Below are positions 11,172-36,803 of a stretch of DNA of 64,000 nt, in pieces. The notes below the pieces were generated by a model that saw nothing but the letters and a program-made list of their open reading frames with translations, searched no databases and had not been told where the DNA came from. Numbering within the stretch: position 1 is the first letter of the stretch; each line of letters starts with the position of its first letter. Made by a program: the position numbers and the translations under genes. The DNA is from an uncultured Nitrososphaerales archaeon (GTDB lineage: Archaea; Thermoproteota; Nitrososphaeria; Nitrososphaerales; Nitrososphaeraceae), in NCBI GenBank assembly GCA_963695855.1, contig CAVOHZ010000010.1, positions 256,001 through 320,000 on the forward strand, given 5' to 3'.

Positions 11172-12200
11172 ATGTATGCGGCATTAGATTTAGGACAGAA
11201 AAACATTCAGGCAGTATTGAAAAATAAAGATGGTAAGATTATAAAGGAAAATAAAATACAGCGTAATACCAAAACAATACTAGAATTTCTTGATAATAGT
11301 AACAAGAATCATAATAATATTGATATTGTAATGGAGTCTGGTTACAACTATCAATATCTATATGATCTTTTACAAGATGAAGGTTATAATGTAAAAGTAG
11401 CACATCCACTAATGGTCAAGGCAATAGCATATGCTAAAGTCAAGACAGATAAAGTAGATGCTAGAATATTAGCAGATCTACTAAGAATGGATATGATACC
11501 AGAATGTTATATACCTAATAAAGATATAAGAAATTTACGAGATCTAGTTAGACGCAGATACTATTTTGTCAGTATTCGAACAATGTTCAAAAACAAAGCA
11601 CATGTTGAGATGAGTAAAAGATGGTTAGATGCTAATGTGACTAATAATATAACAACAACAATGATTAAAAATGATCCATTTTCTAAAAAAGGAAAATGTC
11701 ATTTACGTTCACTGGGAATACATGCATTAGATGATTGCCTTGATACCATAGATTTTCTAGATAGAAAAATAAAAGAGTTGGATACAGAAATAAAGAAATT
11801 GGCAATAGAAGATAAATACTCTAAACATCTTATGACAATTCCAGGTATATCTTACTATGCAGCTCTTCTAATATCAAGCGAGATAGCAGATATTAACAGG
11901 TTTCCAGACTATGAACATCTGTGTTCTTATGCTAGATTAGTACCTGGTACATATCAATCTGGAAATACATCATTCTCAAAAACAGACAAAAAACAAGGGA
12001 GCAAAATGCTAAACTGGATTATGGTACAGTGTACTCATACACATGTACGTTATTGCCAATCATCGATAACAGTACATTACAACAAGATAAAGAATAGAAA
12101 GAGAAATAACAAAATTGCTATAATTGCAGCAGCAAGAAAATTAATGCGTGTGATATATGTTATGCTAAAGGAAGATCGTCCCTTTAGACTGGATGAATAA
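11172..12200 (+). CDS. IS110-family DEDD recombinase A
   Basis: ALDLG, MES, KTDKVD, TIPGI and QSG motifs; ATG at 11172 preferred over GTG at 11112. Confidence 0.93.
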   Translation: MYAALDLGQKNIQAVLKNKDGKIIKENKIQRNTKTILEFLDNSNKNHNNIDIVMESGYNYQYLYDLLQDEGYNVKVAHPLMVKAIAYAKVKTDKVDARILADLLRMDMIPECYIPNKDIRNLRDLVRRRYYFVSIRTMFKNKAHVEMSKRWLDANVTNNITTTMIKNDPFSKKGKCHLRSLGIHALDDCLDTIDFLDRKIKELDTEIKKLAIEDKYSKHLMTIPGISYYAALLISSEIADINRFPDYEHLCSYARLVPGTYQSGNTSFSKTDKKQGSKMLNWIMVQCTHTHVRYCQSSITVHYNKIKNRKRNNKIAIIAAARKLMRVIYVMLKEDRPFRLDE

Positions 12201-29520: not shown

Positions 29521-29570
29521 AAGTTTATTCTAATTCTGTCTTTATAAGTTTATTCTAATTCTGTCTTTAT
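29521..29570. repeat. Perfect 25-bp tandem duplication
   Basis: AAGTTTATTCTAATTCTGTCTTTAT x2. Confidence 0.9.
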
Positions 29571-29901
29571 GTATGATAATTGCAGGATTGTAGTACTAAG
29601 CAAACAAGAAAAGAGACAGAACAAAAAAACATCATTGTATAACCAGTTTCAGACTATTGCTATCAAATGAGTTCTATTATTAGAAAATTAAATCCATAGG
29701 CCAAAGATATAAAATTCAAAATAGATAGATTTACTGAAACATTTTTGAATGAGCTATTATCTCTGGTATTTCTATTGTCATGTATTCCTTACATTTTTGG
29801 TTGTCTAGAGTAATTTATAAAAAAACCAACGAATTTTTGTTTGCATTCTGTTAGTTAGTGTTGCAAGGTACTCATAATTTTTAAATAGCACTATAAGTAG
29901 C

Positions 29902-30732
29902 GTGTTATTAATGTTACATAATTTTGTTTCAGTAGTTGTTGTTGCATCAATCTTTCTAGTTACTATAGTAGCCTCTAATCAGGTATCTGCACAACCTGTA
30001 AGTATCTTACAACAGAATAATAATGCAATCTATGCAGTAAGCATAGTTCCTGGTGCAGCACAAAAAAATAATACTTATCATTACTATCCACCCGTTATTG
30101 CTGTACCTCAGGGAACGACTGTTGGTTGGTTCAACAGCGATTATGGACAGCCGCATACTGTAACTAGCGGTGCAATAGGTGATGCTGATTCTGGTTCTCT
30201 ATTTAACTCTGGTATTATGCCTGCAACTGCTAATTCATTCTTTCAATATACATTTTCAAAAACTGGAGATATTCTGTACCACTGTGAAATTCATCCATGG
30301 CGAGTAGGAAAGGTCTCTACAAATAACGTATATGAAACAGGACATTATTTCCAAATTTCTTATGGTGCAGGGGCTTCATGGGATTTAACAAAGGATCCTA
30401 GGTCACTTATGATTATCAAACCAAGTACTGTTCCCCTAGATAAAAAAACTGCAATTTCCTATAATATTACTATCCAAGATAGCGAAGATAAAAGATTATT
30501 CTCAAATAACTATAATACAATCGGGGATAGTCTTCCGATAGAATTTATCTCTGGTGGAAATGAAACGAGTTCATATGGTCCAGATTTTAGTAGTACAGGT
30601 GCATATCATGTCCTAGCAGGATTTCTAGAGAACGATAAAGCCTATAAAATGACAGCTGAGATTAGTTCTATAAATTACCAACAACCAGATTCTAGAATAA
30701 TAGACGAGTTTATTTTTAAAACCGTTTCTTAA
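29902..30732 (+). CDS. Secreted cupredoxin-domain protein (paralog of 14349)
   Basis: HTVTSG, YHCEIHPWR; shares SYGPDFSSTGAYHV with 14349. Confidence 0.88.
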   Translation: MLLMLHNFVSVVVVASIFLVTIVASNQVSAQPVSILQQNNNAIYAVSIVPGAAQKNNTYHYYPPVIAVPQGTTVGWFNSDYGQPHTVTSGAIGDADSGSLFNSGIMPATANSFFQYTFSKTGDILYHCEIHPWRVGKVSTNNVYETGHYFQISYGAGASWDLTKDPRSLMIIKPSTVPLDKKTAISYNITIQDSEDKRLFSNNYNTIGDSLPIEFISGGNETSSYGPDFSSTGAYHVLAGFLENDKAYKMTAEISSINYQQPDSRIIDEFIFKTVS

Positions 30733-30844
30733 TATTTTTATTTTATCTATCTATATCGTTGGTCATATCATTTCTTCTGCAAAATAATACAATCACGTTA
30801 AGATATTTTTAAATGTTCTACATGCTAATTAGTTATTTTCAAAT

Positions 30845-31200
30845 CAGTTATTTTTCAAATCATCCTCAATTTGACAAAATTGTTCTAATACTGATTTAAG
30901 ATTTTCGATTATTTCCTGTCTTATTATATTTGGGAAAGTAAGATTATCCGAATCTTGAAGACTCTCATCTCTTGAACAGAAAACATCAAGATTGACTTTC
31001 TCTTTTTAAAAGTTCATCATAAGTAAAACTTTTGAATCTTTCCGTTTCCTTTCTCTTGTGTCTGTTTTCAGGGTTATAACATTTTATGAAATCTTTCAAA
31101 ACTTCATATTGAGTGCCAATCTTCAGAGTAAATTTTTATCTTTTTGTAAATTATTCTTTATTGTTGTAACAAGAGACAAAGATGTTGATTGGTTCCATAC
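30845..31200 (-). pseudogene. hsdM: C-terminal remnant of a type I restriction-modification M subunit
   Basis: CYNPENRHKRKETERFKSFTYDEL.KR.KVNLD....DESLQDSDNL...IIRQEIIENL. Confidence 0.7.
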
Positions 31201-31401
31201 GATAAAAAAATGACTATCTCTTGGTTAATTAAATGATATTAGACGCCTTCAAAATATTGGGCATTTCATTTAATGTAAACAGATACATATTGTATAAAAT
31301 TAGAAGTGCCATAGTAGCCTAACTGCAGCGATTTGAATTTGTCATATACGGTGCCTTGTTGAATACATGTAAAAGTCTTTTCCTGTTATCTATTCTCTTA
31401 T

Positions 31402-31543
31402 CCAACTGGCTAACCCCTTGTTGTGCGTGACCTGTCTTACTAGGATAAGGTCTTGCTTGTTGAATGGGGATATGTGTAAGCTGCTGTATATGTGAGCCAT
31501 AAAGAGCTCTGATAGATGTTTGCAGCTTTGTCTGGCTAGTTGG
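31402..31543 (+). ncRNA. Predicted bridge RNA of IS110-B copy 1
   Basis: Closing stem CCAACTGGCTA/TGGCTAGTTGG and two internal-loop hairpins with target and donor guides. Confidence 0.8.
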
Positions 31544-31590
31544 TTGGTTGGTTGGTATACTGATACTAGTATCATAATAAAAAAAAGGAG

Positions 31591-32706
31591 GTGAAAAAGA
31601 GAATAGAAGAAAAAATAATAGAATCAAGAAAAGATGATAGTTACTATATTGCGGTAGACATTGGAAAGAAAAACTGTGTTGTATGTATAACAGATAAGGA
31701 TGGTTCCATAATAGAAGAAACAAAATATGATAATACTCTACAAGAAGCAGAAAGATTTGCTTCTCATTTGGATAAAAAGTATAGCAACAGAAAATGTCAT
31801 GCTGTTTGTGAATCAACAGCGAATATGTGGTTAAAGACATACGAAGCATTTGAGAAATATGGTATAGATGTTAAACTGGCTAATCCTCTGAAGACCAAGG
31901 CAATAGCAGAAGCAAGGATAAAAACAGATAAACTAGATGCTAGAATATTAGCACATTTACTACGATCTAATTTGATTGCAGAATCATATATTGCTCCAGA
32001 TAATGTAAGAGAGGATAGATCTCTACTACGACTGAGAATAAACCTCGTACATGACAGAACCAGAGTTATGAATAGAGTACATTCCCTGTTGGATAAATAT
32101 GATCTGAAATGCAGGTATGAGCATATATTTGGTGTAAATGGTATCAGATGGCTAAAGAGTATAGAACTAAAACTGAAAGGTAATAATGACCAGGTTCAAC
32201 TTGCCAACTACATAAAAAATATTGAATTTCTAAATTCTGAAATCAGACAAATTGAAAAACAGAAATCTGCTGAGGCATCGCACAATGAAAATGTAAAGAT
32301 ATTGATGAGCATGACAGGAATCGACTATTTTTCTGCAATGCTCATTAGTTCTGAGATAGGAGATATATCCAGATTCAGAACAGCAGAAAAACTTGTCTCA
32401 TGGTGTGGATTGTGTCCAACTATATATCAATCAGGTAACTCGATGTATATGGGTAGAATGAAAAAAGATGGAAACAAAAAGATAAACTGGATCATGATTC
32501 AGGCAGCGAATACAGCATCAAGGACAGACGAAAGAATGAAAAAATATTATATAAAGATAGCAAAAAGACATGGACATCATGTAGCGATAACTCATGTAGC
32601 AAACAAGATGATAAGGATAATCTGGTCAATGCTAACATACAAACAACTGTACAATGAAAGAAAAAAGGAACTATATGAGACAAAACTTAAGAAGATCCAG
32701 AATTAA
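31591..32706 (+). CDS. IS110-family DEDD recombinase B
   Basis: AVDIG, CEST, KTDKLD, MTGID and QSG motifs; GGAGG just upstream. Confidence 0.95.
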   Translation: MKKRIEEKIIESRKDDSYYIAVDIGKKNCVVCITDKDGSIIEETKYDNTLQEAERFASHLDKKYSNRKCHAVCESTANMWLKTYEAFEKYGIDVKLANPLKTKAIAEARIKTDKLDARILAHLLRSNLIAESYIAPDNVREDRSLLRLRINLVHDRTRVMNRVHSLLDKYDLKCRYEHIFGVNGIRWLKSIELKLKGNNDQVQLANYIKNIEFLNSEIRQIEKQKSAEASHNENVKILMSMTGIDYFSAMLISSEIGDISRFRTAEKLVSWCGLCPTIYQSGNSMYMGRMKKDGNKKINWIMIQAANTASRTDERMKKYYIKIAKRHGHHVAITHVANKMIRIIWSMLTYKQLYNERKKELYETKLKKIQN

Positions 32707-32874
32707 TGTAAAGTGATACATCATTGCTATGTATCATACTGACTGACAGATAAAGTATCAAACATTACACGGCAGTAGTAGTATTTGGATAAGGAAAATG
32801 ATCAGAAGAGACTTTTACATAGATGCCCAACTCATTTTGCCTAACACATTTAGCTAACCAAATCTAGTCATATT

Positions 32875-33783
32875 ATGTGAACTGGAGAAATCACAACGAA
32901 TCTCTTGTCAAACGTGGCGAGGTATTACTTGATTGTGATGTTATAGATAACTGGAATACTGAACGAGAGAAGATGAATAAGGACAAGAAAGGAAGGTAGA
33001 AAATTCGTATATCCAGATTCATTGATCAAGTTATTCGGATACATGAGAGCATATTTTCACTTACCTTACAGACAAACAGAAGGCGTAGTTAGGGAACATG
33101 CTTCAAACACACTACCATCTATTCCAGATTATAGTAACATTAGTAGAAGAATAAACAGACTGGATATCAAGATTTCTGATGATGATATAACCAAATCTAA
33201 CTTGCATGATGATAATTTTGTAATTGCAATTGATTCTACTGGTGTTAAAGTTACAAACAGGGGTGAATGGATTAGACACAAGTGGAATGTAAAGAGAGGT
33301 TATCTAAAGATACATGTAGCAGTAGACATAAAAAAGAAGAGAATTTTATCACTGCATGTAACCAGTGAAGAAGTACATGATGGAAAAGTACTTCGAAAAT
33401 TAATAGATGAGATTACAGTAAAGAATAACAAAATGATATATACTGCCATCATCATGGACGGTGCCTATGATAGTAACAAGATCTTTCAGTATCTGTCATT
33501 TAAAGGCATACAACCAGCAATAAAGGTAAGAAAGAATTCCATGTGTAGAAAGAAGACCAATCATTACCTTAGAAACAAGATGGTGAAAATGCAGAACAAT
33601 AATTTGCAAGAATGGAAGGATAGCGATAGCTATGGCAAGAGGTGGATAGTTGAATCTGTCTTCTCCTGTATCAAGAGAATGTTTGGAGAATATGTTACTG
33701 CTATCAGGTTAGAGAACATGATAAGAGAGATAATGTTGAAAGCATCGTTGTATAACTGGTTTCAAAGTATAACTGTTACATAA
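32875..33783 (+). pseudogene. IS5 (ISH1-like) transposase, frameshifted near the N-terminus
   Basis: NWRNHNESLVKRGE is out of frame with the LPYRQTEG, IDSTG, KIHVAVD, DGAYD and RWIVES motifs. Confidence 0.85.
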
Positions 33784-33947
33784 TTATCAATCATATAATA
33801 ATGAGAAAGATTGTTTAAACGAGTTATGCATCTATGTAAAAGTCTCTTCTGATCATTTTCCTTATCCAAATACTACTACTGCCGTGTAATGTTTGATACT
33901 TTATCTGTCAGTCAGTATGATACATAGCAATGATGTATCACTTTACA

Positions 33948-35063
33948 TTAATTCTGGATCTTCTTAAGTTTTGTCTCATATAGTTCCTTTTTTCTTTCAT
34001 TGTACAGTTGTTTGTATGTTAGCATTGACCAGATTATCCTTATCATCTTGTTTGCTACATGAGTTATCGCTACATGATGTCCATGTCTTTTTGCTATCTT
34101 TATATAATATTTTTTCATTCTTTCGTCTGTCCTTGATGCTGTATTCGCTGCCTGAATCATGATCCAGTTTATCTTTTTGTTTCCATCTTTTTTCATTCTA
34201 CCCATATACATCGAGTTACCTGATTGATATATAGTTGGACACAATCCACACCATGAGACAAGTTTTTCTGCTGTTCTGAATCTGGATATATCTCCTATCT
34301 CAGAACTAATGAGCATTGCAGAAAAATAGTCGATTCCTGTCATGCTCATCAATATCTTTACATTTTCATTGTGCGATGCCTCAGCAGATTTCTGTTTTTC
34401 AATTTGTCTGATTTCAGAATTTAGAAATTCAATATTTTTTATGTAGTTGGCAAGTTGAACCTGGTCATTATTACCTTTCAGTTTTAGTTCTATACTCTTT
34501 AGCCATCTGATACCATTTACACCAAATATATGCTCATACCTGCATTTCAGATCATATTTATCCAACAGGGAATGTACTCTATTCATAACTCTGGTTCTGT
34601 CATGTACGAGGTTTATTCTCAGTCGTAGTAGAGATCTATCCTCTCTTACATTATCTGGAGCAATATATGATTCTGCAATCAAATTAGATCGTAGTAAATG
34701 TGCTAATATTCTAGCATCTAGTTTATCTGTTTTTATCCTTGCTTCTGCTATTGCCTTGGTCTTCAGAGGATTAGCCAGTTTAACATCTATACCATATTTC
34801 TCAAATGCTTCGTATGTCTTTAACCACATATTCGCTGTTGATTCACAAACAGCATGACATTTTCTGTTGCTATACTTTTTATCCAAATGAGAAGCAAATC
34901 TTTCTGCTTCTTGTAGAGTATTATCATATTTTGTTTCTTCTATTATGGAACCATCCTTATCTGTTATACATACAACACAGTTTTTCTTTCCAATGTCTAC
35001 CGCAATATAGTAACTATCATCTTTTCTTGATTCTATTATTTTTTCTTCTATTCTCTTTTTCAC
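33948..35063 (-). CDS. IS110-family recombinase B, copy 2
   Basis: 371 aa, identical to 31591-32706. Confidence 0.95.
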   Translation of the reverse strand: MKKRIEEKIIESRKDDSYYIAVDIGKKNCVVCITDKDGSIIEETKYDNTLQEAERFASHLDKKYSNRKCHAVCESTANMWLKTYEAFEKYGIDVKLANPLKTKAIAEARIKTDKLDARILAHLLRSNLIAESYIAPDNVREDRSLLRLRINLVHDRTRVMNRVHSLLDKYDLKCRYEHIFGVNGIRWLKSIELKLKGNNDQVQLANYIKNIEFLNSEIRQIEKQKSAEASHNENVKILMSMTGIDYFSAMLISSEIGDISRFRTAEKLVSWCGLCPTIYQSGNSMYMGRMKKDGNKKINWIMIQAANTASRTDERMKKYYIKIAKRHGHHVAITHVANKMIRIIWSMLTYKQLYNERKKELYETKLKKIQN

Positions 35064-35110
35064 CTCCTTTTTTTTATTATGATACTAGTATCAGTATACC
35101 AACCAACCAA

Positions 35111-35252
35111 CCAACTAGCCAGACAAAGCTGCAAACATCTATCAGAGCTCTTTATGGCTCACATATACAGCAGCTTACACATATCCCCATTCAACAAGCA
35201 AGACCTTATCCTAGTAAGACAGGTCACGCACAACAAGGGGTTAGCCAGTTGG
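35111..35252 (-). ncRNA. Predicted bridge RNA of IS110-B copy 2
   Basis: Reverse complement of 31402-31543. Confidence 0.8.
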
Positions 35253-35294
35253 ATAAGAGAATAGATAACAGGAAAAGACTTTTACATGTATTCA

Positions 35295-35472
35295 ACAAAC
35301 TAGCATTTTTGTCTTGATCATTATATTCAGCCAAATCCAACAAAGATTTAATAAAGAATAGTTTATACGTGCTCGATAATTTAGGAGCGCTAAAGAGCGA
35401 ATTAACTTTTACCAGATAATGTTGATAACCACTTTCTTTTTCGTTTTCAAATCGGTTATCTATGTCAAGCAT
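35295..35472 (-). pseudogene. N-terminal fragment of a probable HNH-endonuclease-family protein, truncated at IS110-B
   Basis: SSTYKLFFIKSLLDL motif; ORF runs into the IS. Confidence 0.5.
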
Positions 35473-35611
35473 TAACGTATTTTATATGAGGACAATATTA
35501 AGATGTAATGTAATAGAGTTAATTTTTTTTACTAAATAACTGTCTTATTTACGAGAGTAACTCATCTTCCTAGTATTCTATAGAATAACATGTAAATGAA
35601 CACTGATAAAA

Positions 35612-35664
35612 ACGGGACCGTAGGGAGTAATAGCTATAGCGGTGCTAAAATAAGAGCCTAATGT
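35612..35664. repeat. About 53-bp GC-rich dispersed repeat, copy 1
   Basis: ACGGGACCGTAGGGAGTAA...ATAGCGGTGC...CTAATGT. Confidence 0.75.
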
Positions 35665-36600
35665 TCTATTAATAAAGAACATAATACTTATATTATTTTT
35701 TAAATATAATAGTTCACTTTAGGTGGTATATTTTGTTAATAACGTATTTTGTTAATACCTTGAGATTTATAATTACTTTAGAAAAATTTTTAATCTTACA
35801 ATCTGATTTTATTAACATCGAAATAAAAGCCAGAACCTGCTACTATTGAAGAGTATATCAATAATAGAACGCTATGGTGAATCAAATCTTATTTACAAAT
35901 TAAAATGAAAAGTTACAAATGAAACATCACGCGCCTATCGGAAGTTGAAGAGTCATGGTTTCAGTGTTCAATGTTCATTTCGATTATGAAAAAGTTCGAG
36001 CATAAACAAATGCAATATAGTGACAAATTTCATATATTTTGACTTTTTTATAATAAGGCAGAAATTTTATAATGTATGATAGAAATAGGTTAACACTTAG
36101 TAAGTTAGAGGTTAATGCAACAGGAGGAGCTAATAATTAACTGGTCTAGGAAAAAATATTTTTGATAAGTTTTTTCAAAGGCAAAGGCGTAAGGAATTTA
36201 AAGGTATGGAAGCCAAAGCCACAGAGGCACAAAACCAACACGTCTATAATTAATTTGCTAACAAAAACGAAATAGTCCATGAACAAAATAGAATAGTAAT
36301 ATTAAAAGAGAGGACTGGACTTAGTGATGAGGAGATTTTAGATTCCCTACAACGATTGATTGAAAAGTCAAGTTCTTGCAGTTTCAGGTAAATCACAAAC
36401 AAAACATTCCATAGAAAGAATCCATTTGCATAATTCTATGCGTTTTCTACTGGCTTTTTATCATCTATTTTATCTAATTTTTTTTCCTTTTTTCCAAATA
36501 GTTTACTGAATATATTACAAAACATACTATTATATACACAGAAAGGATATTTAAGTTTGATATTGATTTTTATATTTTAAAAAAGTTTTTTATTATTATT

Positions 36601-36729: not shown

Positions 36730-36750
36730 CATATTGAACCCGAGAAAACT

Positions 36751-36803
36751 ACGGGCCCGTAGGGAGTAAGACCGATAGCGGTGCAAAAAGAGGAGTCTAA
36801 TGT
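36751..36803. repeat. About 53-bp GC-rich dispersed repeat, copy 2
   Basis: ACGGGCCCGTAGGGAGTAA...ATAGCGGTGC...CTAATGT. Confidence 0.75.

Follow-up and report, generated by a model that had tools for sequence, protein, structure and literature searches.

An IS110-family element of a Nitrososphaerales archaeon with a predicted upstream bridge RNA, inserted into both terminal inverted repeats of a resident IS5

Two inverted copies of an IS110-family element (family sensu ISfinder) bracket an IS5 element in a 64,000-nucleotide stretch of DNA from an ammonia-oxidising Nitrososphaerales archaeon (hereafter, the window), and we consider it very probable (roughly 0.9) that this element is RNA-guided and specialised in the terminal inverted repeats of the resident IS5. 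Because a small RNA predicted upstream of its recombinase gene spells both the insertion site and the element's own ends, the element is well supported as a new instance, in an archaeon, of a mechanism already described for bridge RNAs, rather than as a new kind of system. In the mechanism we propose, each copy would specify, ahead of its DEDD/Ser recombinase gene, a structured RNA some 146 nt long, with two arms that each hold an internal loop. Arm 2 would read the joined ends of the element, its 5' strand the right donor and its 3' strand the left donor plus TG, and the recombinase would exchange strands at the common TG, so that no target duplication would arise and only a single orientation relative to the IS5 repeat would be seen. 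Since the IS5 end-repeats are mutually inverted, two independent insertions would give inverted copies bracketing the IS5, with both of its ends cut. The RNA is presumably made, perhaps by processing from the recombinase leader, and bound by the recombinase, and transposition probably runs via a joined-ends intermediate. Feature coordinates are collected in Table 1.

Table 1. Features of the bracketed IS5 and the two element copies, in window coordinates.
Feature	Position	Strand	Basis or remark
Outer 10 bp of IS5 left terminal inverted repeat, TGCCTTGTTG	31352-31361	+	Left target + TG core of copy 1; copy-1 junction
IS110/IS1111-family element, copy 1	31362-32825	+	1464 bp including terminal TG; same sequence as 33829-35292 (-)
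Left subterminal inverted repeat, 11 bp	31367-31377	+	Perfect reverse complement of 32810-32820; also repeat D10/I12
Predicted bridge (seek) RNA, 146 nt	31400-31545	+	Fold, consensus structure, model R1
Outer stem of predicted RNA	31402-31412 / 31533-31543	+	Encloses both arms
Target-binding arm (arm 1)	31414-31469	+	Inside outer stem
Target loop, 5' strand	31418-31428	+	Complementary to top strand of TG + right target; GTTGTGC 31420-31426
Target loop, 3' strand	31453-31465	+	Identical to left target + TG; CTTGTTG 31456-31462; matches left flanks
Donor-binding arm (arm 2)	31480-31526	+	Inside outer stem
Donor loop, 5' strand	31485-31493	+	Complementary to element's first bases (right donor AATACA); TGTAT 31485-31489
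Donor loop, 3' strand	31510-31521	+	Identical to element's last bases + TG; ATAGATG 31512-31518
Recombinase gene, 371 aa	31591-32706	+	GTG start, GGAGGTGA ahead of it
Right end	32810-32825	+	Subterminal repeat 32810-32820 + 3-nt extension AGA + TG core; junction comparison
IS5 body, including inner parts of both end-repeats	32826-33828	+	82-89% identical to other IS5 copies
IS110/IS1111-family element, copy 2	33829-35292	-	RNA 35109-35254 and ORF 33948-35063, both - strand; R1 match 35116-35254 (-)
Recombinase gene of copy 2, 371 aa	33948-35063	-	Second-copy ORF
Outer part of IS5 right terminal inverted repeat	35293-35302	-	- strand reading: left target + TG of copy 2

A repeat search of the window returned inverted repeat arms at 31356-32837 and 33817-35298, and base-by-base comparison revealed exact identity between the copies across 31356-32826, with the first mismatches at 31355 and 32827. 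Once the shared target bases are removed the element measures 1464 bp, and the first-pass annotation's description of two inverted copies of this length around an IS5 transposase was borne out in size, copy identity and IS5 identity. Both junctions of both copies carry TG without target duplication, and the TGs that split the two IS5 terminal inverted repeats occupy the same position in each; among relatives the core is TG in 28 of 32 events, with AG or CG at the right junction of the remaining four. Between the element end and the left subterminal repeat lie 5 nt, or 7 nt with TG counted. A third copy elsewhere in the genome is 3'-truncated and 86% identical, and recent activity of the element is suggested by one observation, the identity of the two window copies.

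The bracketed IS5 was assigned to its family by a DDE transposase (PF01609, E 3.9e-26; NF033579, 231.4 bits over profile positions 48-288 of 289) and by terminal inverted repeats in common with about 20 genomic copies, and the genome holds about 20 related copies that open with TGCCTTGTTG, uninterrupted. Intact copies possess a single 301-aa frame and the bracketed copy two, its transposase frame being broken near 32977-32996, which leaves an ORF at 33022-33783. Inverted copies that are 100% identical and 1 kb apart form a structure that assemblers can mis-join, so that the bracket might stem from misassembly, or from a single insertion that was duplicated in inverted orientation, instead of from two transpositions. 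We regard this as extremely improbable, given that the flanks differ on both sides in the way that left and right IS5 end-repeats differ in intact IS5 copies, and that the same bracket was found independently in another genome (G281).

Turning to the recombinase, domain searches identified PF01548 (E 3.1e-27) and PF02371 (E 1.4e-24), and the model NF033542, 'IS110 family RNA-guided transposase', scored 250.5 bits against a cut-off of 140 over profile positions 1-342 of 343. Against the IS621 transposase, 8wt6, the recombinase aligns in two stretches at E 3.4e-12, and the D, E, D..D and SG motifs line up, with VDIGK, CEST, KTDKLDA and YQSGNS opposite IDTAK, IEAT, KTDTVDA and YESGSS. We take these four motifs to hold the catalytic D, E, D and D and the conserved Ser, which would make the protein a DEDD/Ser recombinase of the IS110 family sensu ISfinder. 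Its earlier description as compact does not stand, as the protein, at 371 aa, is longer than the IS621 chain of the PDB structure (328 aa).

Upstream of this gene, the region 31400-31545 has a minimum-free-energy fold of -49.7 kcal/mol (z -3.49), and 0 of 200 shuffles fold as well. The hairpin stems that the first-pass annotation had named within 31402-31543 are present in this fold, and the four loop motifs it had located (GTTGTGC, CTTGTTG, TGTAT and ATAGATG) all lie where it placed them (Table 1). Structure is conserved among relatives, since the consensus for 21 of them shows compensatory changes in 12 of 23 pairs, and a covariance model (R1) built from 17 distant relatives, with the window's clade left out, matches both window RNAs (57.1 bits, E 2.9e-13; 31400-31538 in copy 1) and also finds the third genomic copy. 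A search of Rfam families gave no match to the predicted RNA. Among four sequencing runs examined (X1, X5, X6 and X7), coverage in the RNA-library runs X5, X6 and X7 was limited to the recombinase ORF of relatives, and the upstream region was covered only in X1, which is flagged as probably DNA.

We then evaluated what the target loop spells. Its 3' strand is identical to the left target plus TG and would therefore pair with the bottom strand; on its 5' strand, G31427 is able to wobble with the T of the core, and the reverse complement of that strand matches 5 of the 6 first right-flank bases at both window sites. The loop-predicted target differs from the reconstructed sites by 1 mismatch for the left copy and 2 for the right; the TG core and the number of mismatches at the occupied sites agree with what had been claimed from the letters alone. 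As a 13-mer, the prediction has 17 exact genomic sites against 0.06 expected, every one of them an IS5 left end followed by IS5 inner sequence, and its 2-mismatch right-end variant has 14; intact IS5 copies show the site uninterrupted. All 17 perfect sites are empty, and both occupied window sites are imperfect.

Among relatives, the 5' strand of the target loop varies along with the right flank (the guide of locus L018, for example, predicts CGCAAC, which is its actual flank), and the 3' strand co-varies at positions -5 and -7 in L016, L017, L019, L021, L023 and L026. When 22 insertions that differ in their guide pairs were scored, matches to the right target reached 112/176 (permuted mean 66.1) and matches to the left target 106/154 (54.7), and reducing the set to a single representative per lineage (15 lineages) gave 78/120 (42.6) on the right and 72/105 (32.5) on the left, none of which was reached in 20,000 permutations, figures that overstate independence because the relatives are kin. 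In a close group comprising 10 events, the right target varies at three positions, and these match in 23/30 cases against 14.8 on permutation, with 28 of 20,000 permutations reaching the observed score; positions 7-8 of the 5' strand never match in this group, so that the effective match there is 6 nt plus core. Weak right-target matches (at most 4/8) occur in 10 of 32 events, among them L039 with 0, L049 with 2 and L063 with 3.

These patterns bear on whether the protein alone might read the IS5 end-repeat, with the upstream hairpins serving as leader or regulatory structures and the site matches arising by chance or from a captured target. Recombinases that read DNA directly at specific sites are common, and the target is partly palindromic, which makes short matches easier to find. 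Yet guide variants follow their own flanks both inside a single metagenome-assembled genome and between families (0 of 20,000 permutations), the matches are divided between the opposing strands of an internal loop, in conserved geometry, instead of forming one contiguous captured copy, and the two 7-mers (left target plus TG, left donor plus TG) appear together in only 58 of 200,000 mononucleotide shuffles of the 146-nt region, which leaves protein-only choice very unlikely. The bridge-RNA reading of target choice put forward at first pass is supported, the predicted 13-mer being the resident IS5 left end-repeat and the loops co-varying with the flanks.

Whether the RNA also reads the element's own ends is a separate matter, as it might guide target choice only, with the protein recognising the ends via the 11-bp subterminal repeats and the arm-2 matches reflecting shared conservation. 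Target-only guidance is how the short seekRNA was first described, and the portions of Siddiquee et al. 2024 (PMC11187229) drawn on here leave end recognition in the IS1111 family open. Long subterminal repeats could serve as protein sites, and pairing of the 5' donor strand is weak in the window, with only 5 Watson-Crick pairs, and mismatched in G281, where a G-A mismatch falls at one of the two co-varying positions of that strand; in the close group, moreover, arm 2 does not co-vary because its loops and the element ends are nearly invariant there. Nonetheless, in 32 of 32 events the 3' donor strand and the element end show one and the same A/G state, and on the tree the two switch jointly, agreeing in 29 of 29 rows, with at least 3 changes at as many places (counted by eye); when G-T wobble is allowed, 5 of 6 lineage types pair positions 3-4 of the 5' donor strand with right-donor positions 4-3; and arm 2 shares the loop geometry of arm 1 in the consensus structure. 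We accordingly judge guidance restricted to the target to be unlikely and favour an RNA that spells target and ends alike. A search for the joined-ends junction in 11 genome contigs and 79 loci did not find it.

To place the element in its clade, we surveyed a sample of the class Nitrososphaeria and found homologues at E <= 1e-30 in 69 of 401 genomes, a tally that takes in one unpublished genome (G283, count only). In relatives with 37-47% aa identity, an IS5-family ORF adjoins the right end of 2/2 copies in each of G281, G227 and G148 and of 1/2 in G357, and an insertion sequence preying on the ends of another was seen in at least five genomes. One metagenome-assembled genome holds at least five target-loop variants, each beside a matching site variant. 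Tentatively, and with somewhat more doubt than belief, we suggest that the clade represents an undescribed bridge-recombinase architecture widespread in ammonia-oxidising archaea (IS1111-type ends and guide polarity, and an upstream RNA with an outer stem), that it is a dedicated hyperparasite of IS5 end-repeats, and that natural reprogramming inside individual genomes fits its target loop to variants of the repeats. If this is true, such reprogramming offers a ready-made natural series of guide/target pairs, and, in a bolder form, cutting both ends would disable the IS5, so that the host would tolerate or even benefit from the hunter. Knowledge of the mechanism dates from 2024, and bridge-RNA variants have been surveyed on a large scale; the present element would widen the range of RNA-guided recombination to include a clade that occurs in mesophilic Nitrososphaeria and, for engineering, may add orthologues with a TG core and IS1111-type polarity, any activity or advantage of which over known ones would be a prediction.

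Comparison with IS621 and the IS110-group bridge-RNA elements (Durrant et al. 2024, PMC11208160; structures 8wt6-8wt9), as far as the excerpted descriptions go, reveals much in common: a DEDD and Ser recombinase with the same two Pfam domains, a left-end RNA upstream of the gene with two arms whose internal loops serve target and donor, guides that all overlap a 2-nt core, no target duplication, and left halves read on the bottom strand with right halves on the top. An IS621-like anatomy was nevertheless ruled out by the 11-bp subterminal repeat (2-3 bp in the IS621 type; PMC11208160) and by guide order, which is reversed within each loop: here the right half (top strand) falls to the 5' loop strand and the left half to the 3' strand, whereas the 5' loop strand of IS621 (LTG/LDG, 8-9 nt) reads the left half (PMC11208160). 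Further differences are the core (TG here, CT in IS621), an outer stem that closes both arms, the archaeal host and a distant protein (E 3.4e-12).

By the IS1111 group criteria (Partridge and Hall; Siddiquee et al. 2024, PMC11187229), the element is instead IS1111-like in its anatomy, that is, in its ends and guide order, but its predicted RNA lies upstream of the recombinase gene. As in the seekRNA elements ISEc11, ISPa11, ISKpn4 and ISPst6, in the parts of that account used here, there is a subterminal inverted repeat (11-13 bp there, 11 here), insertion is specific and oriented without duplication, and the RNA carries the complement of the top strand ahead (5') of the match to the bottom strand, an order seen in each arm of the window RNAs and of every relative examined. 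The extensions also agree at 7 bp left and 3 bp right, being TG plus AATAC (7) and AGA (3) here if, following PMC11187229, the core counts as part of the left end. In contrast, the long non-coding region and RNA are upstream here (left end 229 nt, holding the RNA; right end 119 nt) and downstream in nearly all IS1111 members, with few exceptions such as ISMtsp17 (PMC11187229). One-orientation insertion into the end-repeats of another transposable element is shared with a known IS110-family member, which can consequently occupy both ends; the prey here is of the IS5 family and archaeal, and the hunter's RNA is upstream. Finally, ISEc21 (IS110 type), described in the same source as targeting a conserved stretch in IS3-family transposase genes, is likewise RNA-guided with an upstream RNA and a natural target inside another insertion sequence, but that target is a coding region and not an end-repeat, and ISEc21 has, in that description, the IS110-type guide order without long subterminal repeats.

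The paired IS110 elements are a well-supported further example of the known RNA-guided IS110-family mechanism, with the RNA itself predicted. Comparing the window with itself by repeat search (inverted arms at 31356-32837 and 33817-35298) and base by base, we found that the two copies are exactly identical over 31356-32826 and divergent outside; of these identical bases, six at the start and one at the end are part of similar flanks, which leaves 1464 bp for the element itself, as a first-pass annotation of the sequence had proposed for its two inverted copies. Each copy contains a 371-aa ORF with the IS110-family recombinase domains (PF01548, E 3.1e-27; PF02371, E 1.4e-24), which matches NCBIfam NF033542, 'IS110 family RNA-guided transposase', with a score of 250.5 bits and, among solved structures, aligns with the IS621 transposase (E 3.4e-12) in such a way that the motifs D, E, D..D and SG are in register. 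The source genome (3.55 Mb, 11 contigs) holds only these two identical copies and a third at 86% identity, which ends after ~1024 nt and has no right end.

Separating the copies is 1 kb of DNA with the gene for an IS5-family DDE transposase (PF01609; 231.4 bits on NF033579). The genome has ~20 related IS5 copies at 81-89% identity, and the bracketed one is degenerate, with a frameshift near 32977-32996 as against one 301-aa frame in the intact copies. In intact genomic copies the uninterrupted IS5 left repeat starts TGCCTTGTTGCACAAC and the right repeat, read inward, starts TGGTTTGTTGCATAAC; therefore the TG at which an end-repeat is split is the same for both IS110 copies, as is their orientation relative to the repeat, which is why they are mutually inverted. 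Just right of the bracket lies a 60-nt direct repeat (35605-35664 and 36744-36803, 82% identity), and the window also has an exact 25-nt tandem duplication at 29521-29570 and a 43-nt stretch (29626-29668) resembling the 3' end of the IS5 gene at 74%.

Coordinates of the IS110 copies, of the guide strands in the predicted RNA, and of the weaker genomic matches to its covariance model R1 (C8 and C10 are contigs of the source genome)
Feature	Location	Strand	Remark
IS110 element copy 1	31362-32825	+	identity limits minus flank bases
IS110 element copy 2	33829-35292	-	identity limits minus flank bases
Arm 1, 3' loop strand, CTTGTTG	31456-62	+	identical to left flank + TG
Arm 1, 5' loop strand, GTTGTGC	31420-26	+	reverse complement of G + CACAAC
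Arm 2, 3' loop strand, ATAGATG	31512-18	+	identical to element's last five bases + TG
Arm 2, 5' loop strand, TGTAT	31485-89	+	complementary to element bases 2-6
Weaker R1 match	C8:113846-113976		31.6-33 bits for the four
Weaker R1 match	C10:1746283-1746413
Weaker R1 match	C10:1354543-1354673
Weaker R1 match	C10:1407654-1407784

Within the predicted bridge (seek) RNA, the strands of the target-binding arm 1 match the insertion site and those of the donor-binding arm 2 match the element's own ends (Table). An IS621-like reading of the loops, in which the 5' strand specifies the left half, is rejected: the 5' target strand does contain the left target + TG, overlapping its other match, but this reading leaves the three other strands unfitted, while the reversed order fits all four as well as all relatives. 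Searching the genome with the 13-mer formed from both arm-1 strands returned 17 sites against 0.06 expected by base composition, and these are empty IS5 left ends, since IS5 inner sequence comes next at all 17; the right-end variant of the 13-mer, with two mismatches, occurs at 14 sites. The target predicted by the first-pass annotation thus coincides at 17/17 exact sites with IS5 left ends that its author could not have known, and its positions for all four loop motifs and its counts of one mismatch at the left copy and two at the right copy likewise agree with what we found.

The perfect guide-predicted sites are all empty and the occupied sites in the window carry mismatches; among the 10 events of the close group, a perfect 6-nt right target is present in only one (locus L018). 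Such empty perfect sites could reflect low activity, or else loss from good sites with trapping in poor ones. A further IS5 copy, on contig C8 at about 371382-372470, has the left half-target repeated at its left end as four tandem 10-mers (TGCnnTGTTG), and its right end is abutted by the 3'-truncated third IS110 copy behind a further half-target; the tandem half-targets are possibly scars of repeated half-site recombination.

Turning to the RNA, 31400-31545 folds into an 11-bp outer stem around two hairpins, each with an internal loop, and the two-hairpin upstream RNA proposed from the sequence withstood a folding check (-49.7 kcal/mol, z -3.49, matched by 0/200 shuffles). RNAalifold on 21 sequences (window and relatives) recovered the same architecture, with compensatory double changes in 12/23 pairs. 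The covariance model R1, built from 17 relatives of which none belongs to the window's close clade, has just two matches in the 64-kb window, at 31400-31538 (+) and 35116-35254 (-), both scoring 57.1 bits (E 2.9e-13); in the source genome it also matches the third IS110 copy and the four weaker places. One of these weaker places immediately precedes an IS110-family ORF at C10:1354931 with 31% identity; it seems that a related upstream RNA is also present in a more distant IS110 family of the source genome. Rfam 15 has no family matching the upstream region (30500-36200, permissive thresholds) or anywhere in the window at gathering thresholds.

The predicted RNA is followed by the Shine-Dalgarno-like GGAGGTGA (31581-31590), which relatives conserve down to 41% aa identity, and then by the GTG start of the recombinase. 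Because there is no obvious terminator before this start, the RNA may be cut from the recombinase leader, by analogy with the short seekRNA that arises from a longer form in passages of PMC11187229. The left subterminal repeat has an A-rich part, 25-30 nt upstream of the outer stem, which we infer could be a TATA-like element. In a run search no sequencing run held half or more of the stretch's sampled words, and the contigs of four runs out of the 24 listed, which cannot show starts, ends or strand, were compared: in the three RNA libraries, relatives' contigs cover parts of the recombinase ORF only, and the upstream RNA region is covered only in the fourth, a run flagged as probably DNA. The joined-ends junction predicted from the window coordinates (28 nt, <=3 mismatches) had 0 matches in the 11 genome contigs and 79 loci.

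Homologues occur in 69/401 genomes of the class (a tally that includes the unpublished genome G283, counted there only), and the related-locus search gave 19 loci, mostly in Nitrososphaerales metagenome-assembled genomes. All close relatives (83-91% nucleotide identity) occupy sites of the same kind, and their arm-1 loops differ at a few positions, which follow their own flanks: the guide of L018 predicts CGCAAC, which is its flank, that of L019 predicts TCCAAC where the flank has TCCATC, and at position -5 the 3' strands of L017 and L021 have C and G, as do their left flanks. Distant families (37-53% aa identity) share the ends and RNA plan and have quite different loops, with the L067 guide predicting TTTCCCAA, its flank, and the L044 guide matching its flank at 7/8 positions. 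One metagenome-assembled genome (L016, L018, L019, L020, L022, L026, L029) contains a natural reprogramming series of at least 5 target-loop variants, whose flanks fit their own variant better than others do. Two contigs of 1.8 and 1.2 kb titled Gemmatimonadales bacterium MAG (L023 and L032) also carry copies, with 87-91% identity to the archaeal element; these are more likely mis-binned archaeal contigs than cases of transfer.

We tabulated 35 RNA loci, 32 of them with known right flanks; automatic ends by subterminal repeat were missing for 13/35 and were set from copy-to-copy boundaries and printed offsets, L072 (no recognisable left end) was left out, and L061 and L063 were used in part. 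The own guide matches the right flank at >=5/8 positions in 22/32 events and at <=4/8 in 10/32 (L039 0, L049 2, L063 3). When flanks were permuted among the 22 events that have distinct guide pairs, the resulting figures, which are not true probabilities because kin are not independent, were as follows: 112/176 matches for the right target (permuted mean 66.1) and 106/154 for the left (54.7), then 78/120 (42.6) and 72/105 (32.5) for 15 lineage representatives, each reached by 0/20000 permutations, and 23/30 (14.8) at the three variable right-target positions of the close group (10 events), reached by 28/20000.

In the donor arm, ATAGATG on the arm-2 3' strand accompanies an element end ..ATAGA+TG and ATAGGTG accompanies ..ATAGG+TG, with agreement in 32/32 events. 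On a recombinase tree of 30 rows, donor-loop and element-end states agree in all 29 rows with a known end and need at least 3 changes (counted by eye, midpoint-rooted). Positions 3-4 of the arm-2 5' strand pair with element bases 4-3 in 5/6 lineage types, G-T wobble counted; genome G281 has a G-A mismatch at one of these two co-varying positions.

The association with IS5 also recurs. Genome G281 holds a relative at 47% identity in two inverted copies, and the 324-aa ORF that they enclose shares 32% identity with the IS5 transposase of the window (E 7e-47). An IS5-family ORF adjoins the relative's right end in 2/2 copies in G227, 2/2 in G148 and 1/2 in G357. Hunting the ends of another mobile element is already known in this family: a reference title in Durrant et al. 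has IS4321/IS5075 hunting Tn21 repeat ends, and parts of PMC11187229 describe ISEc21 inserting in IS3 transposase genes.

In the literature searched on bridge RNA/seekRNA, IS110/IS1111, archaea and Nitrososphaerales, neither this clade nor a hunter of IS5 ends is described, though supplementary tables may list the clade. Parts of the published record already catalogue archaeal IS110 recombinases (n = 662; Vaysset et al.), report predicted bridge RNAs for 85.7% of IS110-group and 93.0% of IS1111-group ISfinder elements (Durrant et al.) and, in sections of a 2026 preprint, mine bridge-RNA variants across bacterial and archaeal intergenic space. For another IS110-family ORF in the window (11175-12167 (+), 35% aa identity to the 371-aa recombinase, 3 genomic copies), the left end is short and the shared sequence continues for >700 nt downstream, where its guide RNA, if any, probably lies.

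Compared with the IS621-type element as described in parts of Durrant et al., the window element reads the halves on the same strands (left bottom, right top) and reverses their order in the loop, a reversal that passages of Siddiquee et al. (PMC11187229) give as the difference between IS1111-type and IS110-type seekRNAs. The same passages characterize the IS1111 family by subterminal inverted repeats of 11-13 bp, extensions of 7 and 3 bp, and, with a few exceptions, a downstream non-coding region. The IS1111-like traits of the window element are a perfect 11-bp subterminal repeat (31367-77 / 32810-20), extensions of TG+AATAC and AGA, and the order of the guides, but unlike most IS1111 elements it has its RNA upstream, in a left end of 229 nt as against 119 nt for the right end. 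We therefore assign it to the IS110 family in the broad sense, as IS1111-like by anatomy with an upstream RNA; we regard this mix of IS1111 and IS110 traits as mildly unusual and the prey as interesting.
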